DNA of 64,000 bases from Candidatus Micrarchaeia archaeon (GTDB taxonomy: Archaea; Micrarchaeota; Micrarchaeia; CABMEP01): NCBI GenBank assembly GCA_038886535.1, contig JAVZXS010000002.1, positions 6,673 through 70,672 of the forward strand, given 5' to 3'. Below, in pieces: positions 35,134-62,453 of this stretch. The notes beneath the pieces were generated by a model. The model was not told the DNA's origin. It saw nothing but the letters and a program-made list of their open reading frames with translations, and made no database searches. How positions within the stretch are numbered: position 1 is the first letter of the stretch; each line of letters starts with the position of its first letter. A program made the translations under genes and the position numbers.

Positions 35134-35157
35134 CAATAAAAAGTACAATAAAAAGTA
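35134..35157. repeat. Perfect 12-nt tandem repeat, CAATAAAAAGTA x2, 7 nt upstream of the 35164 start codon
   Basis: Read directly. The same spacer also holds a 14-nt dispersed repeat, ATATTTTTATTAAT, at 35071-35084 and 35096-35109. Confidence 0.9.
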
Positions 35158-35163
35158 GGTTTT

Positions 35164-35853: not shown

Positions 35854-35854
35854 C

Positions 35855-37979: not shown

Positions 37980-37999
37980 TTTATATTTGGGTGAATCTA

Positions 38000-42131: not shown

Positions 42132-42357
42132 GCTGATTTGAACTTCTCAACCTTAGATTATATTTTAGATTATTTAACCCCTTATTTCTGATTTTAAATT
42201 CAGTCCTAACTTTGCAATTGCAAAAACTTATTGAATATGTTTTAAAGATTGCAAAAGATGGATTAGAGCGGGAATAGGGCTCTCAGTGTAGATAGGCGTT
42301 GATTTAACAAAGGTCTACAATTTAAGAAAGGATTATAAATATTTATATATATCAATA

Positions 42358-42383
42358 TGTCAATACAAGTTGTCAATACAAGT
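42358..42383. promoter_or_regulatory. Perfect 13-nt tandem repeat TGTCAATACAAGT x2 between a TATA-like box and the arsR start (candidate operator)
   Basis: Read directly. TTTATATATAT lies at about 42342-42352. GGGG and the ATG at 42390 follow the repeat. Confidence 0.5.
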
Positions 42384-42389
42384 GGGGCT

Positions 42390-42704
42390 ATGGAAAACAT
42401 AAAGGAAACTTTGAAGATTTTGAAGGCATTGTCTGATGAAACAAGGTTAAGAATAGTTTATTTTCTTTTAGATGGCGAAAAATGCGTCTGTGAGATTTTC
42501 CCTCACGTAAAGAGGAGCCAATCAACTGTTTCAATACAGCTGTCAAAACTTGAAAATTTGGGAATTGTTGAATCAGAAAGGAAAGGAAAACAAGTTTTCT
42601 ACAGGATAAAAGACTATCGTGTTTGCGATATTTTCAAGGCGTTGGGTTTTGAGAGAGGGAAAGTATTGAAGAAAGCCTGTTGCATGAAAAGAGGTGAACA
42701 ATAA
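42390..42704 (+). CDS. ArsR/SmtB-family transcriptional regulator
   Basis: LKALSDETRLRIVYFLLDGEKCVCEI, then QSTVSIQLSKLENLGIV wHTH. The ATG at 42390 is preferred to 42357, which lies inside the repeat/promoter. Confidence 0.8.
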   Translation: MENIKETLKILKALSDETRLRIVYFLLDGEKCVCEIFPHVKRSQSTVSIQLSKLENLGIVESERKGKQVFYRIKDYRVCDIFKALGFERGKVLKKACCMKRGEQ

Positions 42705-43810
42705 TGAGGTCTAAATTTTTAGTGCTTGCACTTTTGTTTCTTCTGAGCATCTCTTTCGCTCAGAGTGTTTGTGTTTATTTCTTTTATGGTGACGGATGTC
42801 CACACTGCGCCAAGGTTGAACCATTCATCAATCAAATGAAACAAAAATATCCACAGTTAGAGTTGCACCAGTTTGAGATTTACAATAATAGAAGTAATGC
42901 ACAATTGTTGAATTCTTTTTTTGATTCATACAACATTTCTCAGAAAGAAAGAGGAGTTCCGATTGTTTTTGTTTCAAACTTTTATATTATGGGGGACAGA
43001 CCAATCATTGATAATCTTGAAGAAAAAATTCAAAGTTTAATTGAAACTGGGAGCGAGTGTCCTTCTCCTGAGATCACTGGAGTTTCTGGAATTGCTGAAA
43101 AGGAAGCATTGTCTGGGTTAACACTTGATCTGCCGCAGCTATTTTTTACTGCGACAGGAGCCGCTCTTGTTGATTCGATCAATCCATGTGCGATTGCAGT
43201 GCTCTTGATCCTGTTAACTGCCCTCCTTACAGCTGGAGAAAAGACAAGAGCACTTAAGGCAGGACTTGCATTCATTCTTTCAATCTATATAACTTATTTC
43301 TTATTTGGTCTTGGCCTGTTTCATGCCTTGCAGATAAGCGGACTCTCCTATTGGTTCTACCAAATACTTGGATTCCTTGCAATAGTAATTGGTGTACTTA
43401 ACATAAAAGATTATTTCTGGTATGGTGGGGGAGGATTCGTGATGGAGATTCCTCGTTCTTGGAGGCCTACGCTCAAAAAACTACTGCAAAGTGTCACAAG
43501 TCCCTCTGGAGCATTTCTGATGGGCTTTGTGGTTTGCCTGTTTGAATTGCCATGCACTGGAGGACCATACTTATTTATGACGGGCCTCCTTGCACAGCAG
43601 GTTACTCAAGCAATAGCAATTCCTATCCTTCTCTATTACAATCTTCTGTTTGTTTTGCCTTTGATTGGAATTATTATCTTGCTTTACTTTGGAATGTCAA
43701 AAGTTGAAGAAATGGAGGAATGGAGAACTAGGAATATTCGTCTACTTCATCTCGTGGCAGGTCTTATCATGGTCGCATTAGGTGGTGCAGTTATTCTTAG
43801 GGTTATATGA
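42704..43810 (+). CDS. Fusion of an exported thioredoxin-fold domain (CPHC) with a CcdA/DsbD-like transmembrane thiol-disulfide transporter
   Basis: Signal peptide. FFYGDGCPHCAKVEP. TM core with SINPCAIAVLL and ELPCTGGPY (the two conserved CcdA Cys). TAATG overlap with arsR. Confidence 0.7.
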   Translation: MRSKFLVLALLFLLSISFAQSVCVYFFYGDGCPHCAKVEPFINQMKQKYPQLELHQFEIYNNRSNAQLLNSFFDSYNISQKERGVPIVFVSNFYIMGDRPIIDNLEEKIQSLIETGSECPSPEITGVSGIAEKEALSGLTLDLPQLFFTATGAALVDSINPCAIAVLLILLTALLTAGEKTRALKAGLAFILSIYITYFLFGLGLFHALQISGLSYWFYQILGFLAIVIGVLNIKDYFWYGGGGFVMEIPRSWRPTLKKLLQSVTSPSGAFLMGFVVCLFELPCTGGPYLFMTGLLAQQVTQAIAIPILLYYNLLFVLPLIGIIILLYFGMSKVEEMEEWRTRNIRLLHLVAGLIMVALGGAVILRVI

Positions 43811-43866
43811 TCATTTAGCTACAGATAATATTCACAAAATTATGATGAGACAAGGAGAAGATATAT

Positions 43867-44895
43867 ATGGATCTATTATCGCTTTTGTTTGCTGGCATAA
43901 CTGCTCTTCAAGAATACCTTTTAGAGCATACACTTACATGCCTTATACCTGCATTTTTCATAGCTGGTGCTATTACTGTGGTCATCTCGAAGGAATCTGT
44001 GCTAAAATATCTTGGTGCGAAGACTAAGAAGCGAATATCATATGCAGTAGCATCAATCATAGGAACAATCCTTGCTGTTTGTTCCTGTACTGTTCTTCCT
44101 TTGTTTGCGGGAATTTACAAGAGAGGAGCAGGCCTTGGTCCTGCGATAACTTTTCTTTTTTCTGGGCCAGCAATCAATTTGCTAGCTATCATTTACTCGG
44201 CGAGTCTGTTGGGCATTGATATCGGAATTGCAAGAACAGTAGCAGCCATACTTCTTTCAATAGTAATCGGTCTTATAATGGCTTATCTATTTAGAAATGA
44301 AAAAAGCAAAGGAGATCTGAGCATTGGAGAATCAAAAACCAAACCAACTGTGCAAGTTGTTTCCTTTCTTTCAATTTTAATCCTGATTCTTGTTATTGGA
44401 GCTGCACAAATAGAATTAACATTAAAGTCATTTTTCCTTATCGTTCTGCTTTTCGCTCTTATTGTTGTTCTCAAGATCTGGTATTCAAAGGAAGAGATAA
44501 AGGAATGGCTGAGTGCAACATGGGATTTAGCAAAACAACTTGTTCCATTGCTTTTGATTGGAGTTTTTATTGCAGGAATTATCACTGCAATTGTTCCAAG
44601 AGAACTAATTGAGAATTCCGTCGGAGGAAATTCAATAACCTCAAATTTAGTTGCTTCGATTTTTGGAGCATTCATGTATTTTGCAACTCTTACTGAAGTT
44701 CCGATAGTAAAATCTCTGATGGTTCTTGGGATGGGTAAAGGTCCGGCCCTTGCCTTGCTGCTTGCAGGCCCGTCTTTAAGCCTTCCAAACATGCTTGTAA
44801 TAAACAAAGTTCTTGGGCTTAAGAAAACAGTTGCATATGTTTTCTTAGTAATTATTTTCTCTGCTTTAGCTGGGTTTATTTTCGGAATGCTGTGA
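43867..44895 (+). CDS. COG0701-type permease (two-CxC family, ArsP-like)
   Basis: About 8-10 TM helices. LAVCSCTVLPLF motif and a duplicated half. Confidence 0.7.
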   Translation: MDLLSLLFAGITALQEYLLEHTLTCLIPAFFIAGAITVVISKESVLKYLGAKTKKRISYAVASIIGTILAVCSCTVLPLFAGIYKRGAGLGPAITFLFSGPAINLLAIIYSASLLGIDIGIARTVAAILLSIVIGLIMAYLFRNEKSKGDLSIGESKTKPTVQVVSFLSILILILVIGAAQIELTLKSFFLIVLLFALIVVLKIWYSKEEIKEWLSATWDLAKQLVPLLLIGVFIAGIITAIVPRELIENSVGGNSITSNLVASIFGAFMYFATLTEVPIVKSLMVLGMGKGPALALLLAGPSLSLPNMLVINKVLGLKKTVAYVFLVIIFSALAGFIFGML

Positions 44896-44915
44896 GGTGA
44901 CTGTGAGGTGAAAAA

Positions 44916-45155
44916 ATGGTTAGAATGAAGATTGAAATTTGTGGCTCTGGATGTCCAAAGTGTGTCTCTACAGAATCAGTTGTAAGGAAAGTTGTGAAAA
45001 AACTCGGAATAGACGCTGAGATAAAGAAAGTTTCAGATTTCAATACAATGGCAGATTTGGGGGTGATGATGACTCCTGCAGTGGTAGTAAATGGAAAGGT
45101 GAAGATCCAGGGCAAAATACCAACTGAAGAAGAAATAGAGAAAGTATTGAAATAA
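44916..45155 (+). CDS. Small thioredoxin-fold protein (redox-active disulfide protein 2 type)
   Basis: MKIEICGSGCPKC N-terminus, TPAVVVNGK, 79 aa. Confidence 0.75.
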   Translation: MVRMKIEICGSGCPKCVSTESVVRKVVKKLGIDAEIKKVSDFNTMADLGVMMTPAVVVNGKVKIQGKIPTEEEIEKVLK

Positions 45156-45202: not shown

Positions 45203-46159
45203 TCAATCTCTTATTCCTTCAGGTGTGACTTTGAACACACATTCTCCTTCGGGCATGTTCGGCGAGTCTATAAGTCTTGCGATTCTTTTTTCTTCTTTTC
45301 CTCTTCTTACATATACCCTATATGTTGATTGATGCGCTAGAACGTGCCCTCCAATAGGAGTTGTAGGATCGCCGAATAGGATTGCAGGATTATCCATTAC
45401 TTGGTTTGTAATGTAAACTGCAACATTGTATGTATCAGCAAGTCTTTGGAGTGCACGGATATGTCTGTTTAATTTTTGCTGCCTTTCTCCAAGAGCGCCC
45501 CTTCCTACATAATCTGATCTAAATTGAGAGGTCAAAGAATCAACTATAATTAGTTTTATGTTCTCTTTCTTTATCAGTTCGTCAGCCTTTTCAATTAGAA
45601 GAATTTGATGATCTGAATTCATAGCTCTTGCAACATGGATATTCTTCAAGACCTGATCCGGATCCATTCCTTGTGCTTCTGCTATCTGTCTTATTCTTTC
45701 TGGTCTGAATGTTGCTTCAGAATCTATGAAAAGTACTTTTCCGCCAAGCCCTCCTTGACCTTCAGGCTTTTGTACATTTACTGCAAGTTGGAATCCAACT
45801 TGTGTTTTCCCTGAACCAAATTTACCGAAGAATTCTGTTATCGCTTGCGTTTCTACTCCTCCTCCAAGCAATTCATCAAGTTCCTTTGATCCTGTGCTAA
45901 TCTTTGCAATTTGTTTTCTTCTCTCGTAAACCTGATCTCCTGTTTCAAATCCAATTTCCGTTGCTTTCTTTGCAGCTTCTATTGCTTTTTTCGCATTGTC
46001 AACACTAATTTCACCTATCTCTGCAAGTTCATGTGGAGACGCAGTTGCAATCTTTTCAATAGTATCATATCCCTCTGCTCTGAGCTTTTCAGCAGTTGCA
46101 GGCCCTATACCTGGAAGATCTTCTAATTCTTTTACATACTCACTTTTTTCCTTTGCCAT
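45203..46159 (-). CDS. radA: DNA repair and recombination protein RadA
   Basis: N-terminal Hh[16 protein letters not shown]. Walker [10 protein letters not shown]. Walker B LIIVDS. No intein. Confidence 0.95.
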
Positions 46160-46376: not shown

Positions 46377-47333
46377 TCATTCATTTGCAAAATCGATAAT
46401 TCTTTCTAATGATTCTTGTGGTGTTTCAATTGTATTAAGGAAGATGATGTCACATTTCTGAAGTAATCTTTCATATGCGCTTTTTCTTACTTCAGTCTTC
46501 CAGCTATTTTTTTGTAGCCAGTGTGGATTAAAGAAATCATTATTTACTAAATGCTTTAGTGCTTCTTTTACAGTTAATCTTGTAACAACAGGCTTATTCA
46601 TCTCTCTCCTTAGGATTATGAATTTATTTATATCAACAGAATCAGCTATTTTTTCTTTCCCTACAACCTTTGAAAGATTAAGTATAGCTCTTTCTTTATT
46701 ATCTATCTTTGCAAACCTCATTATATCTTTATATTCTTTCCAACTTTTGCTGAGGTCGGCTCTAATATATGTATTTTTTTCACTTCTGTATCCCATTGCT
46801 GTTCCATTTATGAACTTAAAATAAAACCAATCATCAGCTACTATCTTTGTATTTTGTTTTGTCAAAAGCCCATAGCTTAATGTTGTTTTTCCAGTTCCTG
46901 AAGGGCCTAGGATGCAAGTTCCATTCCCATTTACATTTAGTAATGCTGCATGGGCTGAAAATATATTATGGTTATCCTCTAATACATCTCCTATAAGTGC
47001 TAATGCAACTGATTTTAGCCATCCATAGTAATCATTATTTTTGAAGAAAGCAGTTCTTGATTTAGGGTCATATTGTACAGTTGGAATTCCTTTAGCAGCA
47101 GATCCAGATTCGATTGATAATAGCTTTGCATGCGATCTTATTCCTTCATCAATGAAAAACCAGTTTTCATCCCATTGGTCTTCCCATTCTTCGCTATCAG
47201 AATAGAAATGAAGGCATGCTCCACTTATGTTTGCCTTTCTTTCAAAAATTATGGAAGGAATGTACTTTTTGTATATTCTTTCCTTTTCATCTATGCTTAT
47301 TATTTTTTTAACATATTTAGATTTAGTAGACAT
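46377..47333 (-). CDS. P-loop protein resembling the HPr-kinase C-terminal (HprK-related kinase) fold
   Basis: AALLNVNGNGTCILGPSGTGKTTLSYGLL...IVADDWFYF parallels HprK (G.G.LI.G.SG.GKS...L.......L..DD). Confidence 0.4.
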   Translation of the reverse strand: MSTKSKYVKKIISIDEKERIYKKYIPSIIFERKANISGACLHFYSDSEEWEDQWDENWFFIDEGIRSHAKLLSIESGSAAKGIPTVQYDPKSRTAFFKNNDYYGWLKSVALALIGDVLEDNHNIFSAHAALLNVNGNGTCILGPSGTGKTTLSYGLLTKQNTKIVADDWFYFKFINGTAMGYRSEKNTYIRADLSKSWKEYKDIMRFAKIDNKERAILNLSKVVGKEKIADSVDINKFIILRREMNKPVVTRLTVKEALKHLVNNDFFNPHWLQKNSWKTEVRKSAYERLLQKCDIIFLNTIETPQESLERIIDFANE

Positions 47334-47351
47334 ATGTTAATGGTTGGAAGG

Positions 47352-47369
47352 TAATATTTATAATATTTA
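47352..47369. repeat. Perfect 9-nt tandem repeat TAATATTTA x2 in the pilin-operon promoter region
   Basis: Read directly. Confidence 0.85.
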
Positions 47370-47389
47370 CACGTGTATATAAAATGTCA

Positions 47390-47413
47390 GCATGCTAGTT
47401 ACTCTAGCAATGC
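47390..47413. promoter_or_regulatory. Near-perfect palindrome GCATGCTAG-TTACT-CTAGCAATGC between a TATA-like box (47376-47384) and the SD/ATG of pilin gene 1
   Basis: Read directly. A 9-bp stem with one bulged A. It is the GC-richest element of the spacer and sits where a TSS or operator would lie. Confidence 0.45.
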
Positions 47414-47444
47414 ATTTACGTTCTAAAAACAAAGGTGAGATAAT

Positions 47445-47801
47445 ATGAAGAAATTAGGAGTATTGATGGCATTATTTCTTTTAGGAACATTGGTTTTTGC
47501 ACAGACCGGTTCATCAACAGAAGCAAGTACAAAGCTTAAATCCGTTCTTAGAACTGTTTGTGATCTTTCTGCAGGACTTTTAGGTCCAATAGCATTTGTA
47601 CTTATTGTTCTTGCAGGAGTAGTATATGCAGGCAGTCAATTCTTTGGAGCTGAAGCTAGAGCAACAGGTTCAAAATGGGCAATGACAATGATAACTGGAG
47701 CAATAGTAGCATTCTTGCTATGGATTATAGGTCCAATGATAATTTCTGCATTCGGTGGTGGCAGCTACCAGATCGGTTCAAGTGCATGCTCTGGTTTCTG
47801 A
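47445..47801 (+). CDS. VirB2/TrbC-like pilin paralog 1
   Basis: Sec signal peptide ending VFAQ. Mature part is a Ser/Thr-rich N-terminus, then helix 1 (LLGPIAFVLIVLAGVVYAG), the loop SQFFGAEARATGSKW, and helix 2 (AMTMITGAIVAFLLWIIGPMII). Exactly 2 Cys in the mature region. Confidence 0.6.
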   Translation: MKKLGVLMALFLLGTLVFAQTGSSTEASTKLKSVLRTVCDLSAGLLGPIAFVLIVLAGVVYAGSQFFGAEARATGSKWAMTMITGAIVAFLLWIIGPMIISAFGGGSYQIGSSACSGF

Positions 47802-47832
47802 TTGATAATATTTTTTCTTTTAGTTGATTGCC

Positions 47833-48237
47833 ATGTCAGATGCAAGGACTAGATTTAAAGGTCATTCAAAGAAATCAAAAAGCAATTCAACCTTATATTG
47901 GCTAGTCTTTGCTGTTTCTTTTATTTTTATTATTTCATTTTCGTTTGCACAGACCATCGGTTCTACACAGGCGTCAGACAAACTTAAAAAAACACTTTGC
48001 GATCTTTACAAAGATCTTAATTCAGTAATTCCAACTGTCGCATTTGTTCTCTTTGTTCTTGCAGGAGTTGCATATGCAGGAGGTCAATTCTTTGGAGCAG
48101 AAACAAGAGCAAAGTCAATATCCTGGTCAATGTCAATGGTGACTGGTGCAGTAGTTGGATTATTAATTGTTCAGGTTGCGTCCGTTCTTATTTCAAATCT
48201 TTCAGGTTATCAATTAAAGGACATTTGTCCTGTTTAA
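47833..48237 (+). CDS. VirB2/TrbC-like pilin paralog 2, with a long basic n-region on the signal peptide
   Basis: Signal ends ...SFSFAQ. Core is VIPTVAFVLFVLAGVAYAGGQFFGAETRAKSISWSMSMVTGAVVGLLIV. 2 Cys (TLCDL, DICPV). Confidence 0.6.
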   Translation: MSDARTRFKGHSKKSKSNSTLYWLVFAVSFIFIISFSFAQTIGSTQASDKLKKTLCDLYKDLNSVIPTVAFVLFVLAGVAYAGGQFFGAETRAKSISWSMSMVTGAVVGLLIVQVASVLISNLSGYQLKDICPV

Positions 48238-48312
48238 ATAGTCAATATTTAAATTTTAAATATCTAACATCTTTTTAAATTTTTATTTATAATTTGTTAG
48301 TAAGGTGTTTAA

Positions 48313-48672
48313 ATGAAAATCAATATCTTAATGTCAATAGCCTTTATGTTATTATTGTTTTCGTTCTCATTTGCACAGGGAACTTCTGATGTTACAGAAA
48401 GGTTAGTAGTGGGATTGAATGATGTATGTGTTCAATTGACACAGATTCTTCCTATAATTGCTATTGTATTGTTTGTACTTGCAGCAGTAATTTATGGAAT
48501 TGGTCATATATTTGGTGCAGAGATGAAATCAAAGGCCACAGGCTGGGCTACTTCTATGGTTGTTGGAGCAGTTATCTCGCTTCTAATATTCTTGTTGGCA
48601 AGACCTATTCTAGGCATTTTTATTCCAGAGATATCCACCTCTGACTTCTGCACAGAAAGATTCTATCCATAA
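48313..48672 (+). CDS. VirB2/TrbC-like pilin paralog 3
   Basis: Signal ends ...SFSFAQ. Core is ILPIIAIVLFVLAAVIYGIGHIFGAEMKSKATGWATSMVVGAVISLLIF. 2 Cys (DVCVQ, DFCTE). Confidence 0.6.
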   Translation: MKINILMSIAFMLLLFSFSFAQGTSDVTERLVVGLNDVCVQLTQILPIIAIVLFVLAAVIYGIGHIFGAEMKSKATGWATSMVVGAVISLLIFLLARPILGIFIPEISTSDFCTERFYP

Positions 48673-48720
48673 ATTTTTTATTTCACTTTTTGGCATATTC
48701 TCTTTTATTCCTTTTTCTAT
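48673..48720 (+). terminator. Oligo-T tracts after pilin gene 3 (possible partial terminator/attenuator)
   Basis: T6 immediately after the stop, then several T3-T5 runs within a 97-nt spacer. Archaeal termination uses oligo-T. Confidence 0.35.
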
Positions 48721-48769
48721 TCAATACATAGCATTTAAAAACTTTTAAAGAAATAATAAAGCGATAGCT

Positions 48770-49591
48770 ATGGCACTCGGATTTACTACTAGACAAATGG
48801 CTTATGGGGCGATAGGAGTTTCCATATTAGTTTTCTTAATAATGGCAACACTTCCAGGGGGAAGTACTTTACAATTCATCATGGCAGGTTTGTCTTTATT
48901 TACTGCAGTATTGTCATTTATTCTTTGGAAATACGGATATTGGATGGTTCCATTCATAACAAAGAGGCTTAACATAATTGAAGTACATGATGGGCAATGG
49001 GAAACCACTCCAGCACAGGATGCAATAGTTAAAAAGATAGGAGATGAATATTATGCATCTGTTTTTCTTCACATTAAGATGTACAAATCTACAACAGAAA
49101 GATCTCAAGAAGAAAACATGGTTTTCATAGATTCATTTGAAAGAGCAATTGCAAACATAAAATATCCAGTAAAGATTGCAACACTTCTTTATGCTAAGGA
49201 CATAGCAAAATACAGAGAGGATATTGAGACAAAGAAATATGAAGCGCAATTAAAGCTTCAGAGAGAAAGAGAAAAATCAGAGCCCGATGTTTTGGCATTA
49301 GATAGATTGGAAAAGGAAGTAGCAATGTATGAGGCAGAGTTAAACAGAATCATTTCTGGAGAAAGGCCAATGGGATTGATTTCATATGCAATGACAACTG
49401 GGGTTGGAGTTACAAAAGATGCAGCAGTTGCAGTAGCAAAGAATCAGGCAGCTGAAATAAAGACATTGCTTGCAAACGCCCTTAATGTAGAGGTATCATA
49501 TTTGTATGGAGAAGATATGATGAAGTGTTATGATCTTGAACACATGGTTCCTCCAACAATAAAGGCATTGAAAGATTTTGTTGAGGCATAG
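48770..49591 (+). CDS. VirB3-like TM hairpin fused to a VirB4 N-terminal-like domain (hypothesis)
   Basis: N-terminus LGFTTRQMAYGAIGV plus two TM helices recalls the VirB3/TrbD entry motif (..TRP....GV). It is followed by a ~200-aa soluble domain with a coiled segment. Sits immediately upstream of the VirB4-type P-loop ORF. Confidence 0.4.
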   Translation: MALGFTTRQMAYGAIGVSILVFLIMATLPGGSTLQFIMAGLSLFTAVLSFILWKYGYWMVPFITKRLNIIEVHDGQWETTPAQDAIVKKIGDEYYASVFLHIKMYKSTTERSQEENMVFIDSFERAIANIKYPVKIATLLYAKDIAKYREDIETKKYEAQLKLQREREKSEPDVLALDRLEKEVAMYEAELNRIISGERPMGLISYAMTTGVGVTKDAAVAVAKNQAAEIKTLLANALNVEVSYLYGEDMMKCYDLEHMVPPTIKALKDFVEA

Positions 49592-49622
49592 TTTGGTAAA
49601 TTATTTTTTTATTGGTGAATAA

Positions 49623-51194
49623 ATGGGTGATTTAAAGATAAACGATGTTCAGAATACGGATATAGGAAGAAGAACAATCATTGTCAGCCCACCAGAGCCA
49701 CCCGCAGAATATCTAATGGGCGATCCTAAGGATTCAATATATTTAGGAAGAACAGCTGTTTTTAATGTTCCTTTCTATTGGAATTTCAAGAGATTAACAA
49801 ATCCACATATCGCAATAACAGGAATCACTGGTTCTGGTAAATCCTATTTGATAAAGACATTTCTCCTCAGGGCAGCACTAGTATGGAATGCAAATGCAAT
49901 CATCATCGACTGGGCTGGAGAATATAAGGCATGGGTTAAACAAGTCAATGGGGTTGTAGTAGCTCTTGGAAGAGGTTCTTATCTAAATCTTTTAGACCTT
50001 GGAGGCATGAAGCCTTCAGATAGGATAAAACAAGTAATAAGATCACTTGAAATACTTACTGATATAGGTCAATATCCAGAACAAAGGAGACTTATAGAAG
50101 AAGCGATAGAAAAGGCATATTTGAATGCAGGATTTAAGCTTTCAGAAAAGGATCAGAGAGATGCATTAGGCAATCCTCTAAGGCCGCCTACTCTTAAAGA
50201 CGTTCAAAAAATTCTACAACAAATGCTTGAGACAGGGACATATGAGTTTCCTGCAGAACTTCAGAATGCTATTTATAAGATAAAGAAGTTTACTCTTGAA
50301 GGTGATGATTATTTTGCAGAACAGTCTACTATAGATCTTGACAAACTTCTTACATCTGGTCTTGTTGCAATCGATCTCTCGGGATTGCCAGACGAAACTT
50401 TCCGTGCGCTTGCAGCTCTTACCATTCTTCAATTCATAAAAGAAAAGATGAGAATGGAAGGATGGAAGCCAGAGAAGGGAATAAAACTTTTTGTTGTGCT
50501 GGACGAAGCTTGGAAAATTTCGAAGGATGAGAATAGCGATGCAGTTATGATTGTAAGAGAAGGAAGAAAGTATCAATTTGCACTGATAGTTGCATCACAG
50601 ACTCCAACAGATATAAGTGAGGTAATATTCAGCAATGTAGGGACTGTAATTATGTTAAGATTAAAGTTTGAAAAGTATCTCGATTATTTGCAAAATTCAT
50701 TGAGGTTTAGTAATTATATAAGACAACAGATTTTGGGATTTGGAGTTGGGCAAGCTGCGATTTCTATGGCTTATGAGCAAACCACTCCATTCAGCGAAAC
50801 ATTCATACTTAAGAAGATTGACGGTGAAGAGCCAATAGTTGATTACTTCATCGATATTCTATCTGTGCTGACAGAAGCACAAAGAAGGGATGAGACAATG
50901 CCAAAGAGTTTTTCAATGGAAAGAACAGCATTCAAGAAGAGATTGAGAGAAATGGGACTTAGCGATCAAAGAGTAGAGGAGATATCTACACTAATTGAAA
51001 AGAAGGCAAAGCACATCGATGCAATAGAATTCGTGATAGAGCTTGAAAGAAGCGGAGTAAACAGGAAAACAATTACAATGTTCTTCAGAGAGCTTGGAAT
51101 TGATGATAGTACTATTATAAACATATTTACAAGAGCAGATCAGAAAAAGACAGGAGCAGGAGAAAGAGAATTAACTCAAATAACATTAGAATGA
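49623..51194 (+). CDS. VirB4/TrbE/CedB-type (DUF87-like) secretion ATPase, C-terminal P-loop domain, plus a helical C-terminal extension
   Basis: Walker A NPHIAITGITGSGKSYL. IIIDWAGEY. SYLNLLDL. PTLKDVQKIL. Walker B LFVVLDEAWK. REGRKYQFALIVASQTPTDI. About 110 aa of extra helical repeats at the C-terminus. Confidence 0.75.
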   Translation: MGDLKINDVQNTDIGRRTIIVSPPEPPAEYLMGDPKDSIYLGRTAVFNVPFYWNFKRLTNPHIAITGITGSGKSYLIKTFLLRAALVWNANAIIIDWAGEYKAWVKQVNGVVVALGRGSYLNLLDLGGMKPSDRIKQVIRSLEILTDIGQYPEQRRLIEEAIEKAYLNAGFKLSEKDQRDALGNPLRPPTLKDVQKILQQMLETGTYEFPAELQNAIYKIKKFTLEGDDYFAEQSTIDLDKLLTSGLVAIDLSGLPDETFRALAALTILQFIKEKMRMEGWKPEKGIKLFVVLDEAWKISKDENSDAVMIVREGRKYQFALIVASQTPTDISEVIFSNVGTVIMLRLKFEKYLDYLQNSLRFSNYIRQQILGFGVGQAAISMAYEQTTPFSETFILKKIDGEEPIVDYFIDILSVLTEAQRRDETMPKSFSMERTAFKKRLREMGLSDQRVEEISTLIEKKAKHIDAIEFVIELERSGVNRKTITMFFRELGIDDSTIINIFTRADQKKTGAGERELTQITLE

Positions 51195-51249
51195 TGACCT
51201 AAACATATTCAGATTGTATATTCATGTAGAAGGATTTAGAGGGATTTTG

Positions 51250-51696
51250 ATGGCTAAAGTATGTATAATTGGAAAAGAAGAAGTCAAGGGAGGAAATTAC
51301 AAGAAAGTCAAGGAAGATATAGTTATCTCATCCATAAGGAATCTTAAGAGATTCTTTAAGATCGCTGCAGAAAACGAGCTTGTAGTGTGTGAGAATCATC
51401 TCGGAGAGGCAATTAAAAGAAGAAAGGAATTTGAATCATCAATAGTAAAGATAGTTGCTGTGGTTGCAGTGATAGCGGTTATAGCAATCATACTAGCTTT
51501 ACTCAATAACTCTCTCAATTTCATCCCAGCTACAATTTCAATGATCATCTTACTATTCATACTATTGATGTTTGTTTCTTTGTTTAGGTATTTCCCTGCA
51601 ATAGAAAATGCAGAAATAGTTTCGAATGAGAAAGAGAAAAAGCAAAAAGAGACTACAAAGCAATTTAAAGAAAAGCAAAAAGTAAAGAGGAGATAA
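51250..51696 (+). CDS. Small membrane protein (cytoplasmic N-domain, 2 TM helices, Lys-rich tail)
   Basis: ATG at 51250 after GAGGGA. TM helices IVAVVAVIAVIAIILALL and ISMIILLFILLMFVSLF. Confidence 0.5.
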   Translation: MAKVCIIGKEEVKGGNYKKVKEDIVISSIRNLKRFFKIAAENELVVCENHLGEAIKRRKEFESSIVKIVAVVAVIAVIAIILALLNNSLNFIPATISMIILLFILLMFVSLFRYFPAIENAEIVSNEKEKKQKETTKQFKEKQKVKRR

Positions 51697-51697
51697 G

Positions 51698-52444
51698 ATG
51701 GTTTCATTTGACAAGAAAGATCAACAGGTTTCATCAAGAGAACCATTCATCGAGGGATTTAGGATAGAAGCAAAGATGCTCAAAGGAACTCAGGAAATAA
51801 TAGATGCACTTTCGCCATTGCAGTTCTTAGACATAGTAGAAACAAAAACAGGAATAGCAGCAATTAATGTCGAGAGAAGAGACATTCAAAAGAATCCATA
51901 TCTCTTTTCCATAATCTATCTCAATCCAGATTGTATAGAGATAATATACAGCTATAACCCAGATGAGAGCCCAAAGAAAAGAAGATTAGAAATACTTCGC
52001 TACTTTTTGAATATTGTAACTCTTCTTGAGAATGTTTATTTCATTAATCACAAACAGCTTTATCAGGTTGTTGACAACTTCATGTCACGTCTTTTGGAAT
52101 ATACCTCTTCTACCTATGAGGAGCTTTTCTCAAAATATGATTCAGTAAAGGAAGAGTGCGACAGGATAAAGAAGCAGCTTGCAGAGGTAACAGCTGCAAA
52201 TGAAAGCCTCAGGAAATCAAACATGGAGCTGAAGGAGCAGCAGAATCAATTGATGCTTAGGATAAAGGAACTCGAGATGGTTTCAGATGATGTTCTCATC
52301 TCAAGAATACAGACATGGTTGGATGAACATAATTATGAGATAAACATTTCTGATTTCGCTAGAATAAATAAGGTCAGTGAGCAAAGAGTAGAAGAGATAC
52401 TTAATAAAATGGTAAGAGAAGGATATTTAATACAGAGAGAATAA
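51698..52444 (+). CDS. Cytoplasmic protein with an N-domain, coiled coil and C-terminal winged-HTH-like domain
   Basis: Heptad-rich segment (KEECDRIKKQLAEVTAANESLRKSNMELKEQQNQLMLRIKELE), then ISDFARINKVSEQRVEEILNKMVREGYLIQ. The start abuts the previous stop. Confidence 0.5.
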   Translation: MVSFDKKDQQVSSREPFIEGFRIEAKMLKGTQEIIDALSPLQFLDIVETKTGIAAINVERRDIQKNPYLFSIIYLNPDCIEIIYSYNPDESPKKRRLEILRYFLNIVTLLENVYFINHKQLYQVVDNFMSRLLEYTSSTYEELFSKYDSVKEECDRIKKQLAEVTAANESLRKSNMELKEQQNQLMLRIKELEMVSDDVLISRIQTWLDEHNYEINISDFARINKVSEQRVEEILNKMVREGYLIQRE

Positions 52445-52492
52445 CAAATGCTATGTTGATGATTTCTTAATATTCTAATAAAGAGGATAGGT

Positions 52493-55114
52493 ATGCAAGA
52501 TGAGAAAAATCAAACAAATCAAAGAAAATTTGCAAAGGTACATAGGGCAGTATACAAGTTTAATATTAGAAGGATGTTCATACCTATCAAGAGATTTATA
52601 AAAAAGACAAATGAATTCACCCCACAGATGATCTTGGATTCATTATCATCTTTATTCAAGCCAAAGGAGAAGTATGGTGAGAAAAAAGAACTCAAGCCAA
52701 TGAAACCAGTAAAGGCAATGCCTTCTCCTATAATGAATTTCATAATTGTATTCCTTTTATGCCTGTTGGCGATCGGAGGATATTTTCTTTTCATTTATTA
52801 CACTGGTCCTTCAGAGCCTGTGACTCCTCCGGTAACAGAAATACCAAAACCAACTCTTTCAGTAAATGTATTGAGCTCAGGCTATCTTGATTCTTCTTTT
52901 GACAAGACAAGATGGTTTGCCTTAGTTGAAATTTCTTCCCAGAATGCTACAAACATAAGCTTGGATATGGTTATTCAGCAGAATCCCATCCCAAATGATG
53001 TTTATATATTAAGAGTTCCAAACTACCAATTTGCATCAAACTATCCTCAGTTCTATTCTGTTCTGAAGAACAAGCTTGAGAAGAAAGGATTGTATCTTTC
53101 AGAAATAACTATAGATGAACTTGTCTCTTTGCCATCCACAAGAAAAATAATTTTAGTGGTTCCTTCAGGCTATCTCCCAGCTGTATTTGTTGGGGAGGAA
53201 TATGCAAATTTCACTCTAAAAAGCTTTGTTGAAAATGGAAATGTTGTAATCTACATAGGTTACAAACCAACAGACAGCATTCTTTATTCCAATTCTCCAA
53301 ACCCGCAGCCATTATCTCTAGATAAGATAGCAAGCTGGCAGCTTTCATTTGATCAAGCTACAGATCAGCCATCATTCTTCTCGTTCAGGAATCCATTGTA
53401 TTCTGTAAAGGCAGTAGGAAGTACATCAACCCGTCCAGCAGTAACAGGAGAACCTGGCGGTTTCTCTGTTAAGTGGGGTGGAGATGGGTTTGCATATTTT
53501 ATACCAACCACAATAGATTTCTGGTGGCAATTTTCAGGTGAGAAGTCTGCAGAGGAGCTTGCAGATGCGATAGTAAATGGAAAATGGGGCTATGGTCTTT
53601 CAAGAATACAGAAAACCATTCCTGTGAATGGTTCCATAAACAAGCAGATAATCATATTCAGCTCGCAATTTAAATTCCCGGACAGCACAAGGGTTTCAAG
53701 ATCTTATGGGAAGCTTTATGTTCAATCCCTGAATCAGGTAGAGAACCTAACTGAAATCAATGGTATTTCTCTTCCTGTCAGATTTCCAACCAGGCCGAAT
53801 GGCATTTTGATGCATGATGATGTAGCATTAAATTCAATCATAACTGGAAATCCTCTTGAGATAAAGTACTCTTTAAACGAAAATACAACTGAATTAAGAC
53901 AGCTTTATTTATCTGCCATATCAGAAAACAATGAAGAAATTTTATTCACGCCTATAACTGCTGCTCCAGTACCTCTTAAGCTTTCAAATGCAGTATATAG
54001 ATTTGATAACAGGCTTCCGCAAGGCAATTATATATTAAGAATAACAGATGACAGGCGAAACGTTTATGCACAATCATATCTTTCAATGGCATCTTTCAAT
54101 ATCGAACCTTACATCACAGATTTCATATCTGGCAATTATATCTTTAATGTATATTTCTCATCAACAGGTGAGCAATACACCTCTGATTTGAAGAATGTGG
54201 TTGTCTCAGTTGATGATGGAGACAAAAAGACACTCGAGGTAAGACAGGGTAGAATTTTATATAACGCCACTCCTATTACTGTGCCTGGTGTTCATATATT
54301 TAAATTTGAATTCGGGCCGGATACAATTATTCTTCCAGTAACTTACACAAGACCTGTTTCTATGTTTGAGAGGCCAGAAAACATAGCAATGGGAATAATC
54401 GCAATACTTCTCTTTGCAATCGGGTATTTGATTTCAAGACCAGAGGCAGTAAAATATTCAATAGATGTTCCAGATTTCCCACCCTTACAATCAATAGCAG
54501 TTCCAATAAAAAGAGAAAAAATATTGGACATGTTTGATTCGATAAATGCTGATCTTAAATGGAAATATACTCCACTTACAATCAATGATCTAAAGATGGG
54601 ATTCAAGAAGATAATGTTCAGAGGAAAACCTCTTCTTGTTGGCGATTACAATCTTGAAATGGTTCTTGACAAGCTTAAGGAAGAGGGATATGTTGTCCAG
54701 TCAATGGATTATTATGGATTAAAAAGATGGGAGAAGGAAACAAGAAAATCAATTTATTACCTTGCTCTTGTTAGGGCTCTTAGGGATGTGTTTGTAACAG
54801 AGGGAATTCCATTCCTTCAATTTGGACAGAGGGGAGATGCAGATACAGTACTAAGCTACGGTGGAGAAAAGGTATATATTCACATTTATGAATCTGATGC
54901 AGTTATAAAGAAGGCAATTCAAACTTCCTCTTTCGGAAGAACAATTATTGTTTTTGAGAATGAAACAGTGATGAATGATTTCCTATCCAGAATTCATACT
55001 CCGAGCCAGCAAAACGTAGTATTCAAATTGCTCCTTGACAACGGAAAGATAAGCGTTGCTCCAATAACAAGTTTCATGGATGTTCTGACAAAGAAAAAAA
55101 TATTTACTTACTAA
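52493..55114 (+). CDS. 873-aa bitopic membrane protein: short basic N-tail, TM, ~520-aa extracellular domain, TM, ~230-aa cytoplasmic domain
   Basis: TM helices IMNFIIVFLLCLLAIGGYFLFIYY and IAMGIIAILLFAIGYLI. The C-domain contains a wHTH-like segment, LEMVLDKLKEEGYVVQS. No family recognised. Confidence 0.6.
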   Translation: MQDEKNQTNQRKFAKVHRAVYKFNIRRMFIPIKRFIKKTNEFTPQMILDSLSSLFKPKEKYGEKKELKPMKPVKAMPSPIMNFIIVFLLCLLAIGGYFLFIYYTGPSEPVTPPVTEIPKPTLSVNVLSSGYLDSSFDKTRWFALVEISSQNATNISLDMVIQQNPIPNDVYILRVPNYQFASNYPQFYSVLKNKLEKKGLYLSEITIDELVSLPSTRKIILVVPSGYLPAVFVGEEYANFTLKSFVENGNVVIYIGYKPTDSILYSNSPNPQPLSLDKIASWQLSFDQATDQPSFFSFRNPLYSVKAVGSTSTRPAVTGEPGGFSVKWGGDGFAYFIPTTIDFWWQFSGEKSAEELADAIVNGKWGYGLSRIQKTIPVNGSINKQIIIFSSQFKFPDSTRVSRSYGKLYVQSLNQVENLTEINGISLPVRFPTRPNGILMHDDVALNSIITGNPLEIKYSLNENTTELRQLYLSAISENNEEILFTPITAAPVPLKLSNAVYRFDNRLPQGNYILRITDDRRNVYAQSYLSMASFNIEPYITDFISGNYIFNVYFSSTGEQYTSDLKNVVVSVDDGDKKTLEVRQGRILYNATPITVPGVHIFKFEFGPDTIILPVTYTRPVSMFERPENIAMGIIAILLFAIGYLISRPEAVKYSIDVPDFPPLQSIAVPIKREKILDMFDSINADLKWKYTPLTINDLKMGFKKIMFRGKPLLVGDYNLEMVLDKLKEEGYVVQSMDYYGLKRWEKETRKSIYYLALVRALRDVFVTEGIPFLQFGQRGDADTVLSYGGEKVYIHIYESDAVIKKAIQTSSFGRTIIVFENETVMNDFLSRIHTPSQQNVVFKLLLDNGKISVAPITSFMDVLTKKKIFTY

Positions 55115-55224: not shown

Positions 55225-56361
55225 CTATCTTTTCTCATTTTCAGTCAAGAGTTGATTGTATATCTCTATGTGTCTTTTCAGTGTTTTTTCTATTGAGTGC
55301 TCCTTTGCCATCTTTACTGCATTCTTTGACAATCTTTCTCTGTTTTTTATGCATTTTATTACTGCCTCTGCACATCCCTTAACATCATGCGGCTTAAAGA
55401 GATAACCATTGTAATCATCCTTTACAAGATCTGGTATTGCAAGATAATCTGCACCTGCAACAGGTAATCCACATGCAAGTGCTTCAAGGCAGGAAAGGCC
55501 CTGTGTTTCAAACATAGAAGGAAATGCAAATACATCAGCATTATGATAAAATTCAACTATATCTTTATGCTTTACTCCGCTAATGAATATGAATATATCC
55601 TCTACCTTATTTTTCTTTACTAATTCTTTGTATTTTTGTTCCATAGGTCCGCTTCCCACTATTATAAAAAACGCATTCTTTATTTCTTTTCTAATAATAG
55701 GTGCAGCTTTGATTAGCACCTCAAGATTCTTTTCTTTCACCAGTCTTCCAGTGTAGAGTATAACTGTTTTATCTAGCCACATTTTCTTTTTACCAGGTTT
55801 GAACCTTTTAAGATCAATTCCATTTGAAATTGCTTCAACATTTTTTATTCCATTCCTTATGCATTCTTTTTTCATATATTCGCTAGGAACAATGACTTTA
55901 TCACATTGATTATAATACCATCTAAGATATCTCCATGCAACACTCTTCATTATCTTCTGCATTGGCTTGATCGGAGCTATGTAATGAGTCGCCTCCTGGA
56001 TATTTGTATGGAGAGTTCCTACAAGAGGCTTTTTGAGAATGCTTGCTGCATAAAGCGCTGCTAAACCCATTGGACCCATCCCGTGTGAATGTATGACATC
56101 AATCTTTTCTTTTCTAACTATTTCTTCTGCATCCGGATATGGGAATATAGCAAGCTTGTATGTAGGATAGGGAATGAATTCTATTGATGGAAAGATATAT
56201 GCATCATCTTTTCTTCTTCTCTTTTTAACTTCAGGCGTTCCTGCTGCAAATACTACTATTTTATTCCCTAGTTTCTCCAGCCTTTCTTTTATATTTGTTA
56301 TAGCAACAACAACACCATCAACATTAGGATACCAAGTTTCTGTAAAGAATGCAATTCTCAT
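55225..56361 (-). CDS. Glycosyltransferase family 4 (GT-B)
   Basis: MRIAFFTETWYPNVDGV N-terminus. C-terminal FPSMFETQGLSCLEALACGLPV (E-x7-E). Confidence 0.85.
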   Translation of the reverse strand: MRIAFFTETWYPNVDGVVVAITNIKERLEKLGNKIVVFAAGTPEVKKRRRKDDAYIFPSIEFIPYPTYKLAIFPYPDAEEIVRKEKIDVIHSHGMGPMGLAALYAASILKKPLVGTLHTNIQEATHYIAPIKPMQKIMKSVAWRYLRWYYNQCDKVIVPSEYMKKECIRNGIKNVEAISNGIDLKRFKPGKKKMWLDKTVILYTGRLVKEKNLEVLIKAAPIIRKEIKNAFFIIVGSGPMEQKYKELVKKNKVEDIFIFISGVKHKDIVEFYHNADVFAFPSMFETQGLSCLEALACGLPVAGADYLAIPDLVKDDYNGYLFKPHDVKGCAEAVIKCIKNRERLSKNAVKMAKEHSIEKTLKRHIEIYNQLLTENEKR

Positions 56362-60831: not shown

Positions 60832-61188
60832 ATGAGAAAATTATTTACTATTGTTTTTTTGTCATTAATTTTTAGTATAGTATTTGCACAGTCAACAACA
60901 TCCACTACAAGTTCGTCAAGTGAAAAAATTAAAGATGCTATTTGTGCAGTTTATGATTTATTAAATGGTTTGCTTCCAGTTATAGCATTTGTTCTCTTTG
61001 TTCTTGCTGGTGTTGCATATGCAGCAGGAAATTTCTTTGGAGCTGAGATGAGGGCAAAGGCAACAGGCTGGGCAATGAATATGATAACTGGAGCAATAAT
61101 TGCATTGATTTTGTCTGCAGTAGGCCCATCGATATTAAGTTATCTCTATCAAGGTGAAGGCAGTATAAATGCAGATTTATGTTCTTAA
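60832..61188 (+). CDS. VirB2/TrbC-like pilin paralog 4 (satellite copy)
   Basis: Signal ends ...SIVFAQ. Core is LLPVIAFVLFVLAGVAYAAGNFFGAEMRAKATGWAMNMITGAIIALIL, nearly identical to paralogs 1-3. 2 Cys (AICAV, DLCS). Confidence 0.6.
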   Translation: MRKLFTIVFLSLIFSIVFAQSTTSTTSSSSEKIKDAICAVYDLLNGLLPVIAFVLFVLAGVAYAAGNFFGAEMRAKATGWAMNMITGAIIALILSAVGPSILSYLYQGEGSINADLCS

Positions 61189-62417: not shown

Positions 62418-62453
62418 GAAACATTAGATTTAAATGAAACATTAGATTTAAAT
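62418..62453. repeat. Perfect 18-nt tandem duplication GAAACATTAGATTTAAAT x2 upstream of the LamG gene
   Basis: Read directly. Each copy carries a TATA-like TTTAAAT. It ends 35 nt before the ATG at 62489. Confidence 0.9.

Follow-up and report, generated by a model that had tools for sequence, protein, structure and literature searches.

The question raised by this locus is whether a cluster of eight genes on an archaeal chromosome encodes a machine derived from a type IV secretion system (T4SS) and, if so, what that machine does for the cell that carries it. The cluster is located in a 64,000-nt stretch of a Candidatus Micrarchaeia genome (contig JAVZXS010000002.1), and we refer to this whole stretch as the window. 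All positions are those of the window, except that stretches carrying relatives (L001, etc.) are given in their own coordinates. The eight open reading frames (ORFs) are on the + strand at 47445-55114; they encode proteins of 118, 137, 119, 273, 523, 160, 248, and 873 aa, and the spacers between them are, in order, 22, 75, 97, 31, 52, 1, and 48 nt, which agrees with the co-directional, tightly spaced arrangement described in an earlier sequence-only reading of this DNA. The first three proteins are pilins, and we refer to the remaining five as p273, p523 (the motor ATPase), p160, p248, and p873. The findings presented here suggested that the locus is a vertically inherited, domesticated T4SS derivative that acts in host contact and import, and we assign this reading a probability of about 0.7. 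That the machine is T4SS-derived we consider very likely; the role in host contact and import, which is proposed by analogy, is held less firmly.

We began with p523, in which all of the ATPase motifs quoted in the sequence-only reading were present. Among the NCBIfam models, CedB ranked first (3.7e-24), followed by VirB4-like CD1110 (5e-22), CedD (1e-20), the VirB4 of mycoplasma integrative and conjugative elements (ICEs) (1e-17), and TraC (3e-15). The HerA models, at 3e-14 or weaker, ranked below all of these. In addition, the VirB4-type models aligned with residues 36 to 394 of p523 in one stretch, and the HerA models aligned only with residues ~241 to 380, about half of the motor. These results supported the proposed VirB4/TrbE-type ATPase, and similar results were observed with the family as a whole, as CedB, VirB4-CD1110, CedD, and VirB4_plasma were the top NCBIfam matches in 18/18 members tested. 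The Pfam matches of p523 were DUF87, AAA_10, and P-loop_TraG. In the case of the CedB model (NF041017), p523 scored 85 bits against a cut-off of 700; because its scores were all far below the equivalog cut-offs, p523 represents a new family that is an ortholog of none of these proteins.

Comparisons with plasmid-borne proteins pointed in the same direction. A tblastn search of 72,556 plasmids with p523 matched 2673 records, mostly TraC/VirB4 on conjugative plasmids, and the lowest E-values came from monoderm plasmids with monoderm-type VirB4s. When hhalign was used, the p523 family was placed on residues 253 to 596 of the 672-aa VirB4 protein TrsE (pSK41), which is the C-terminal domain. Only ~36 residues precede the P-loop domain of p523, and a helical extension of ~130 aa forms its C-terminal end. 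In 11 relatives (L030, L040, L048, L050, L068, L069, L070, L073, L076, L077, and L080), the last ~100 ATPase residues were found in a separate small ORF or after an insertion, at about 11.5 to 12.2 kb in locus coordinates, which suggests that the extension is a separable module. In one further ortholog (L005:799-4323), the ATPase is interrupted near the P-loop by an intein that contains a LAGLIDADG domain.

The best 120 database matches of the ATPase were full-length, with 58 to 90% identity, and the names among them were almost always Micrarchaeota (Micrarchaeia, Anstonellales, Gugararchaeum, and Bilamarchaeaceae). Thus, the host belongs to the Micrarchaeota, a DPANN phylum, in agreement with the DPANN-like archaeon suspected in the sequence-only reading; p523 and p273 are ~99% identical to proteins on contigs of Micrarchaeia metagenome-assembled genomes (MAGs) such as JAVZRC010000011.

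The gene directly upstream of the ATPase gene, p273, appeared to supply the parts of a VirB4-type motor that precede the ATPase domain. An AlphaFold2 (AF2) model of p273, built from a 40-sequence alignment (predicted local distance difference test score, 80.7), has membrane helices at residues 7 to 27 and 33 to 67 that form a hairpin with VirB3-like position and topology, followed by an alpha/beta domain that, in the model, resembles the VirB4 N-terminal domain. When this model was compared with 350,542 PDB chains using Foldseek, the top 11 matches were all TrwK/VirB4 of R388 (probability, 0.80 to 0.98; E, 5e-3 to 0.14), and the first unrelated chain appeared at E 0.3. We therefore have moderate confidence that the modeled domain has the VirB4 N-domain fold. 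In addition, trsB-trsC-trsD-trsE of pSK41 follow the same gene order (pilin, hairpin/N-domain-like protein, and DUF87 ATPase). Most simply, p273 and p523 would be the two halves of a split CedB/VirB4, with the hairpin in the anchoring role of VirB3.

The split VirB3/VirB4 proposed in the sequence-only reading was thus upheld at the fold level and not at the sequence level. Window p273 had no sequence match in Pfam, NCBIfam, or the PDB, including a PDB profile search, and Pfam and NCBIfam searches with 40 p273 family members gave only faint PrgI, VirB4_plasma, and CedB matches. Specifically, window p273 aligned with positions 131 to 202, in the N-terminal part of the 894-position VirB4_plasma model, at E 1.6, and two relatives matched the CedB model weakly (E 0.04). 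Sequence-level proof that p273 equals VirB3 plus the VirB4 N-domain was not obtained with Pfam, NCBIfam, PDB, profile, or hhalign comparisons. A p273 profile run against 1.84 billion proteins identified 196 cluster representatives, all stand-alone proteins of 240 to 280 aa. The matches were few, and the named relatives among the 10 clusters sampled were Micrarchaeota, so the family looks restricted to this phylum. Tandem duplicates of p273 were observed in L012, L015 (genus Micrarchaeum), L023, L028, L052, and Microcaldus ARM-1 (L165:9992-11682). This doubling of the N-domain is reminiscent of CedB and CedD, which jointly account for one VirB4 N-domain. The proteomics supplements for ARM-1 contained no entry for its p273 homolog or the neighbors of this homolog.

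Pilin genes were the third component that pointed to a T4SS. Pilins 1 and 2 scored above the Pfam gathering cut-offs (Table 1), and pilin 2 also matched the NCBIfam TrwL pilin (8.5e-6). Pilin 3 fell below the Pfam cut-off (23.9 bits), with the same architecture and cysteine pair as its paralogs. The assignment of these proteins to the VirB2/TrbC type in the sequence-only reading was correct, and its count of three was not; the window has four paralogs, since a fourth pilin gene lies 5.7 kb outside the cluster and matches pilin 2 at 78% of the nucleotides in a 133-nt stretch. A repeat finder independently recovered the four genes as family D1 (47581, 48029, 48449, and 60974), the sole repeat family of note in the window. 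In the pilin family as a whole, 10/19 members matched TrbC and 7/19 matched T4SS_pilin, with the members coming from divergent Micrarchaeota, and the best PDB match of the family profile was the R388 VirB2 pilin TrwL, a weak match (E 0.034).

The pilins have a common plan. The signal peptide, whose last residues are A-Q or A-G, is followed by a short N-terminal tail containing a single Cys and by helix 1. An invariant G-A-E-x-R-(A/S)-(R/K) loop leads into helix 2, which opens with an invariant Trp, and the C-terminal tail has an invariant Cys at its end. In pilin 1, for example, the signal peptide ends in FAQ, the loop between the two hydrophobic helices is GAExRA, and the cysteines are C39 and C115. 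Each window pilin has exactly two Cys residues, and the pair was present in 152/165 collected pilin ORFs. We predict from this pattern that a disulfide joins the N- and C-terminal tails, which may be functionally similar to the head-to-tail cyclization of TrbC and the T-pilin. In L036 (18889-21428), the pilin domain is fused into larger proteins of 203 and 429 aa. A 139-aa protein with 4 to 5 membrane helices and a Lys-rich tail is encoded at 61214-61633, starting 25 nt past pilin 4; it matched nothing in Pfam or NCBIfam, none of the 160 related loci encoded a homolog, and it was rejected as a conserved pilin partner.

Table 1. Features of the pilus locus and its surroundings in the window, with the occurrence of core genes in the best 80 related loci
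Feature	Coordinates	Strand	Description and evidence	Loci with gene	Identity to window protein
Intergenic region, HprK-like gene (-)/pilin 1 (+)	47334..47444	.	Divergent; AT-rich TATA-like boxes, read from sequence		
Pilin 1	47445..47801	+	118 aa; PF18895 T4SS_pilin, 27.2 bits (cut-off, 26.6)		
Pilin 2	47824..48237	+	137 aa (TTG start) or 134 aa (ATG 47833); PF04956 TrbC/VirB2, 28.7 bits (cut-off, 27.9)		
Pilin 3	48313..48672	+	119 aa; TrbC 5e-5 and T4SS_pilin 9e-4, both below cut-off		
p273	48770..49591	+	Two-helix membrane hairpin and cytoplasmic alpha/beta domain (AF2 model, Foldseek); always directly upstream of ATPase	75/80	43-50%
p523	49623..51194	+	P-loop motor ATPase, probable equivalent of VirB4/CedB C-terminal domain; NCBIfam CedB 3.7e-24	80/80	about 60-66%
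p160	51250..51696	+	148 aa from ATG; two membrane helices (alignment of relatives)	79/80	26-37%
p248	51698..52444	+	Cytoplasmic; N-terminal alpha/beta, coiled coil ~138-195, C-terminal winged helix	77/80	34-47%
p873	52493..55114	+	AF2 model	71/80	22-28%
GT4 glycosyltransferase	55225..56361	-	Frequent neighbor of core		
Pilin 4	60832..61188	+	118 aa; FAQ signal end, GAEMRA loop, Cys pair C38/C117		

Next, we considered how widely the genes occur together. A scan of one genome per GTDB species gave at least 599 pattern matches and at least 496 confirmed ATPase relatives, and our locus counts refer to the best 80 of these at least 496 confirmed stretches. All but five of the 80 loci, which had other or unspecific archaeal names, were labeled Micrarchaeota. 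The core order p273-ATPase-p160-p248-p873 and the strand were constant in every locus, with the exception of an inverted p873 in L059. All five core genes were found in 67/80 loci, and most of the others end at contig ends. Thus, the 273/523/149/248/873-aa set singled out in the sequence-only reading is conserved across the related loci examined. As shown in Table 1, identity to the window proteins declines from the motor outward. The genes upstream of the core vary and include those for adenylosuccinate lyase, a Mg-chelatase-like AAA protein, a glycosyltransferase family 2 (GT2)-methyltransferase, GINS, and a restriction-modification system.

The pilin genes followed a different pattern. Pilins were on the same strand and directly upstream of p273 in 18/80 loci, and these 18 loci form several groups whose ATPases are only ~62 to 66% identical to that of the window: the clade of the window (2 to 3 pilin copies), L006 and L007, L011, L050 and L070, and a group including the genus Micrarchaeum (L012, L015, L023, L028, and L052) that also has the tandem p273 duplicate. 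A metagenome scan with a pilin profile identified 375 confirmed loci. The longer of these carry tandem arrays of 1 to 6 pilin genes in housekeeping surroundings, with no ATPase within 10 kb, and de novo clustering of the array neighbors returned housekeeping genes only (superoxide dismutase, a cation antiporter, and GT2). Because the pilins are mostly unlinked elsewhere, the contiguous layout of the window, which happens to show the entire system in one place apart from the detached pilin 4, is a minority arrangement, and the sequence-only picture of pilins and core as one obligatory operon could not be maintained. Core and pilins can share a genome without being adjacent. On contig Ga0210057_1000468 (67,120 bp), for example, a pilin pair at ~31.6 to 32.5 kb and the ATPase gene at 47.2 kb are 15 kb apart, and L016 and L135 apparently come from the same 629,424-bp contig, as the contig sizes are identical.

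The proposal that one promoter serves all eight genes was likewise not borne out, given that additional AT-rich TATA-like boxes were found upstream of pilin 3 and p273 and that the pilins are separate in most relatives. The AT-rich boxes at 47334-47444 are putative, TATA-like promoter elements. The same region contains a Shine-Dalgarno-like motif, AAAGGTGAG, ahead of the pilin 1 ATG, and GGTG/GAGG Shine-Dalgarno-like motifs precede most starts in the cluster.

Several results weigh against a T4SS-derived machine. In 62/80 loci, the core has no pilin gene beside it. No VirB6/CedA/TedA-like channel, VirB8, VirB11, or VirD4 was found in the cassette or in the 64-kb window, as judged from a Walker A scan of ORFs of at least 110 aa outside the cluster and from scans of the polytopic ORFs. 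The link between p273 and VirB4 is at the fold level, with a best E-value of 5e-3 and TM-scores of ~0.3; hhalign comparisons of p273 with TrsC and TrsD (pSK41) were nonsignificant, and no long VirB4 was recovered when 1.84 billion proteins were searched with the p273 profile. The two tandem p273 paralogs of ARM-1 have no ATPase gene within 10 kb, which indicates that the cassette is rearranged in at least the ARM-1 lineage. In a PDB sequence search with p523, HerA chains (5e-14) outranked the sole VirB4 match (Thermoanaerobacter; 1e-7). Finally, the ATPase is ~60 to 65% identical between loci, which is unusually high for a T4SS motor when the other components are far more diverged.

Such conservation would also fit a housekeeping role, and one rival explanation is that the core is a membrane-anchored HerA/FtsK-type DNA translocase, acting for example in segregation, division, or repair, that is unrelated to pili and lies next to pilin genes only incidentally. 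The presence of the highly conserved ATPase in at least 496 genome stretches, the intein in one relative (a feature typical of essential genes), the rank of HerA in the PDB sequence search, the 62/80 core loci without adjacent pilins, and the HerA label that several databases give to relatives (other labels are "ATP-binding protein" and "hypothetical") are in line with this explanation. However, p523 lacks a HAS-barrel N-domain, and none of its neighbors was recognized as NurA, Mre11, or Rad50. The rank of HerA in the PDB search agrees with the published finding that CedB and CedD, which carry VirB4-like N-domains, had been classed in the HerA clade (PMC11868833), and it is the VirB4-type models, not the HerA models, that cover the whole motor. 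Moreover, the top PDB fold matches of the p273 domain are VirB4 proteins, several divergent groups have pilin genes directly upstream of p273 on the same strand, the gene order mirrors trsB-trsE of pSK41, and p873 has a large, fast-evolving ectodomain that would be unexpected for an internal DNA pump. We therefore consider a housekeeping translocase unlikely and return to a T4SS-derived machine.

If the locus is T4SS-derived, it might still be an ordinary integrated conjugative element or the remnant of a decayed plasmid. The conjugative ancestry of the pilin and VirB4-like genes and the mostly conjugative plasmids matched by p523 would suit such an origin. The surroundings of the genes do not. 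The GC content of the cluster (0.34 to 0.37) is the same as that of the remaining window, and a repeat finder detected no long or att-like direct repeats flanking the cluster. No relatives were found on IMG/VR viral contigs, and the core gene order is constant over 80 loci with differing housekeeping flanks. We also scanned the window ORFs outside the cluster: ORFs of at least 110 aa were searched for Walker A motifs, and 24/46 of these were searched against Pfam or NCBIfam. No integrase, relaxase, coupling protein, or CedA-like protein was detected among the 24 of 46 ORFs scanned, and the only Walker A hits were in a KaiC-like protein and, as a match to the motif, in a membrane protein of 158 aa. 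The P-loops of radA and of the HprK-like gene beside the cluster belong to other families. The polytopic proteins encoded in the window are a Na/Ca exchanger, a major facilitator superfamily transporter, DUF1405, a DsbD-like protein, a permease, and an unassigned protein with seven transmembrane helices (7-TM) beside KaiC-like genes. Thus, the statement in the sequence-only reading that the window lacks a relaxase, VirD4, a VirB6/CedA-like protein, VirB11, and an integrase held for the ORFs scanned, as did its conclusion that this is not a typical conjugative element. Because of the synteny, the varying housekeeping flanks, and the lack of an integrase or relaxase among the ORFs scanned and of an att-like repeat, GC anomaly, or relative on viral contigs, the locus is not a mobile element; we rejected an ICE or plasmid origin, which we regard as highly improbable.

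The three remaining core proteins were said to represent unknown families, and this was the case. All three are conserved together with the core, and p160 and p873 have no family match. The p160 ORF opens at a TTG at 51214 (160 aa), and the most likely start is the ATG at 51250 (148 aa). At the N terminus, the protein has a cytoplasmic CxxC...CxxC zinc-ribbon-like module, which is half-degenerate in the window copy. Past this module come a basic KKRRxxFE segment, a pair of membrane helices, and a tail rich in Lys; there was no match in Pfam, NCBIfam, or the PDB. A p160-like gene was also observed directly upstream of pilin arrays that are away from the core in metagenome loci L099 (8853-9269) and L107 (8820-9296). 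For p248, the coiled-coil, winged helix-turn-helix protein expected at this position was confirmed. It matched EAP30 just below the cut-off (7.8e-6; 26.2 bits versus 26.8), a faint signal that recurs in orthologs, and the CdvB winged helix (PDB 2xvc) at E 0.0046. From these similarities, its winged helix appears to be closest to the ESCRT-II/CdvB type.

The largest protein, p873, had been described as bitopic; instead, it has a cytoplasmic N terminus and two membrane helices (79-103 and 628-647) around an extracellular region of ~520 aa. The AF2 model, based on a shallow 10-sequence alignment, is confident for residues 115 to 620 and poor for the C-terminal ~230 residues, and it places an alpha/beta domain and three beta-sandwich domains in the ectodomain. 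The ectodomain is only 22 to 28% identical across the phylum. The C-terminal ~230 aa are cytoplasmic and highly conserved, with the invariant residues concentrated at 658 to 830. Searches with 44 members gave no family (Pfam) or PDB sequence match, and Foldseek returned only generic tandem immunoglobulin (Ig)/MG/FN3 arrays. The idea that p873 is a known T4SS component found no support in these generic Ig-like arrays. A p873-like gene is located near pilins, away from the core, in L160 (11330-13444).

Full-text literature searches, including a December 2025 T4SS review that covers Patescibacteria and archaeal plasmids and from which DPANN is absent, identified no description of a T4SS-like system in Micrarchaeota or DPANN; the Mia14 paper describes type IV pili only, and the ARM-1 genome paper makes no mention of pili or secretion. 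We therefore compared the locus with four known systems. The Ced system of Sulfolobales/Desulfurococcales (CedA, CedA1, CedA2, CedB, and the newer CedD/CedE) is likewise chromosomal, relaxase-less, and conjugation-derived, and it has a VirB2-like two-helix pilin and a motor composed of membrane helices, a VirB4-like N-domain, and a HerA-clade ATPase. In CedB and CedD, these motor parts are in one chain (PMC11868833), whereas in Micrarchaeota they appear to be divided between two genes. Among the NCBIfam models, CedB matches p523 best, yet, at 85 versus 700 bits, p523 is no ortholog. No CedA/CedE polytopic channel was found in the Micrarchaeota locus, the Micrarchaeota pilins carry a Cys pair and a cleavable signal peptide, in contrast to the unprocessed CedA1 (PMC9905601), p160, p248, and p873 have no Ced counterpart, and the host is a DPANN symbiont rather than a free-living crenarchaeon. 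The resemblance to Ced and Ted with a different accessory set, as the sequence-only reading had put it, was thus apparent. Ted of Thermoproteales (TedA, TedB, and TedC), compared by description, is also chromosomal and shares a signal-peptide pilin, TedC, and a VirB4-like ATPase (PMC9905601). In contrast to Ted, the Micrarchaeota locus has no TedA/VirB6-like protein and no linked HerA, ParA/VirC1, or Rad50, which often accompany Ted genes, its ATPase appears to be split, and its accessory set is different.

The T4SS of Patescibacteria (candidate phyla radiation, e.g., Southlakia epibionticum) belongs to organisms that are also ultrasmall episymbionts with reduced genomes, and it is also chromosomal, relaxase-less, and lineage-wide. 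It has tandem arrays of VirB2-like pilins (PF18895) and a stand-alone, VirB4-N-terminal-like TrsD, the commonest T4SS component in these bacteria, beside VirB4 (PMC12102498), and by E-value, the nearest plasmid relatives of p523 are monoderm-type VirB4s. The differences are the archaeal host, the fusion of the VirB3-like hairpin and the N-domain-like domain in one Micrarchaeota protein, the lack of detected VirB6, VirB8, VirB1, and VirD4 homologs in the Micrarchaeota locus, and p160, p248, and p873, which are specific to the Micrarchaeota system. The resemblance is functional and architectural and is not a claim of common descent. In the case of pGO1/pSK41 (MPF_FATA), the pilin-like trsB, VirB3-like trsC, VirB4-N-domain-like trsD, and DUF87 VirB4 trsE are colinear with the Micrarchaeota genes, and p523 aligns to the TrsE C-terminal domain. 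The pSK41 module, however, is plasmid-borne, with relaxase, coupling protein, VirB6-like, and CHAP hydrolase genes; TrsE retains its own N-domain, and p273 has no detectable sequence similarity to TrsC/TrsD. Relative to the known domesticated conjugation machines, the Micrarchaeota system is set apart by the probable split motor, the arrays of Cys-paired pilins, and the three new partner families.

Based on these comparisons, we propose how the T4SS-derived machine might work. The pilins would be inserted by Sec, cleaved after the FAQ or A-x-A-like site, and pooled in the membrane, and the conserved Cys pair would tie their N- and C-terminal tails. A p523 hexamer anchored by p273 would then extract the pilins and polymerize them into a thin, hollow pilus, as bacterial VirB4 does. 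p873 and p160 may form an envelope-spanning scaffold that replaces VirB6/8/10, with the variable ectodomain of p873 facing the S-layer or host and its conserved cytoplasmic domain facing the motor, and p248 may bridge the cytoplasmic parts via its winged helix and coiled coil. The machine would make contact with host or sister cells and mediate transfer across that contact. The most likely cargo would be imported DNA or nucleic acid, as in Ced/Ted, and import would serve recombination and nucleotide supply in a genome-reduced episymbiont. This role would parallel that of the relaxase-less Patescibacteria T4SS with pilin arrays, which is essential for epibiotic growth (PMC12102498, PMC12857230).

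A pilus of this ancestry might instead serve only in adhesion, host recognition, or protein/lipid exchange, with no DNA transport. The locus has no linked gene for a relaxase, coupling protein, nuclease, or single-stranded-DNA-binding protein, its radA linkage is not conserved, and the multiple fast-evolving pilin paralogs and the variable p873 ectodomain are suggestive of surface recognition. In addition, 24/70 loci have a glycosyltransferase family 4 (GT4) gene at most 750 nt from the end of p873, and 6/75 have one just upstream of p273; this linkage suggests glycosylated surface parts, and the GT4 protein is a possible accessory for such glycosylation. In Patescibacteria, moreover, the T4SS is essential and ComEC-dependent DNA uptake is not (PMC12102498, PMC12857230). 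However, Ced and Ted, the closest characterized archaeal relatives, import DNA without a relaxase or coupling protein (PMC9905601), and the basic GAExR(A/S)(R/K) loop of the pilins would, if the VirB2 topology applies, line the pilus lumen as in DNA-conducting pili. The present data do not discriminate among cargoes. We judge a purely adhesive or exchange function to be rather unlikely and favor host contact combined with import.

A more specific possibility is that the cassette is the symbiont-side conduit of the Micrarchaeota-host junction, either a VirB2-type pilus that reaches the host or a tube-docking envelope complex, and imports host DNA, nucleotides, or other macromolecules. Cryo-electron tomography of ARM-1 and Metallosphaera revealed intercellular tubes 6.7 nm wide and, in the symbiont envelope, a 21-nm barrel; no proteins were assigned to these structures, and the authors attributed the tubes to the host (PMC11329633). 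It is speculation that the cassette is the symbiont-side counterpart of these structures, and we hold the conduit idea, which is drawn by analogy, only tentatively, as it is more doubtful than probable.

The flanks of the cluster are as the sequence-only reading described them, with radA and an HprK-like gene upstream and GT4 and gatE/gatD downstream. That reading took the adjacency of radA as a hint of a role in DNA uptake or recombination, which did not survive the comparison, because radA was within 10 kb in only 4/80 loci, all close relatives. In general, radA, the HprK-like gene, and gatD/E adjoin the cassette in 1 to 4 loci, and only in close relatives, and radA linkage was rejected as functional evidence. 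The HprK-like gene (46377-47333, - strand), which is divergent from pilin 1, encodes a 318-aa protein with a P-loop domain like the C-terminal domain of HPr kinase; it adjoins the cluster only in the closest relatives and was rejected as a member of the system. The radA gene of the window (45203-46159, 318 aa) has no intein. In two MAGs whose ATPases are 99% identical to that of the window, RadA is 832 aa, with an intein that was confirmed in L001 (4017-6515, - strand) and inferred from ORF size in L010 (1522-4020, - strand); near-identical genomes thus differ in the presence or absence of this intein.

The remaining window is ordinary archaeal core, including topoisomerase VI A/B, FtsZ, eIF-2B, KaiC-like ATPases, TtuA, radA, and gatD/E. 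A redox/metal module at 42357-45155, 2 to 5 kb upstream of the cluster, consists of genes for an ArsR-like regulator, a 368-aa thioredoxin-fold/DsbD/CcdA-like fusion, a permease with 10 transmembrane helices, and a 79-aa CxxC thioredoxin-like protein. As pure speculation, this module could provide extracytoplasmic disulfide chemistry for the Cys-paired pilins. The genes at 33489-36613 encode a KaiC-like ATPase, a protein with TATA-binding-protein-like and V4R domains, another KaiC-like protein, which lacks a Walker A motif, and the 7-TM protein (252 aa), and as far as tested, they have no relation to the pilus finding. A 1040-aa secreted protein (37991-41113) with a PGF-pre-PGF domain and adhesin-like repeats is likely to be an S-layer or surface protein of the symbiont. 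A 99-nt tRNA at 15635-15733 (Rfam, 59.8 bits), which ARAGORN misses, is probably an intron-containing archaeal tRNA. Finally, an 18-nt unit, GAAACATTAGATTTAAAT, is perfectly duplicated in tandem in an intergenic region at 62418-62453.

The locus described here bears on the molecules of DPANN-host contact and on the route by which DNA, nucleotides, lipids, and other building blocks are obtained from the host. It is a concrete, syntenic gene set of conjugative ancestry that is directly testable and is a strong candidate for host connection and uptake; relatives are present in the genus Micrarchaeum, and the p273 pair is present in the cultured ARM-1. The analysis defines three new protein families (p160, p248, and p873) and a probable split CedB/VirB4 architecture. 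If the conduit reading is true, the cassette would be essential for the DPANN episymbiotic lifestyle, and convergence or an ancient transfer would have made it the archaeal counterpart of the T4SS that is essential in Patescibacteria. Together with Ced/Ted of Crenarchaeota and the T4SS of Patescibacteria, the locus would bring the independent domestications of the conjugation machine to three, two of them in radiations of ultrasmall episymbionts, which would point to a general solution to host dependence.

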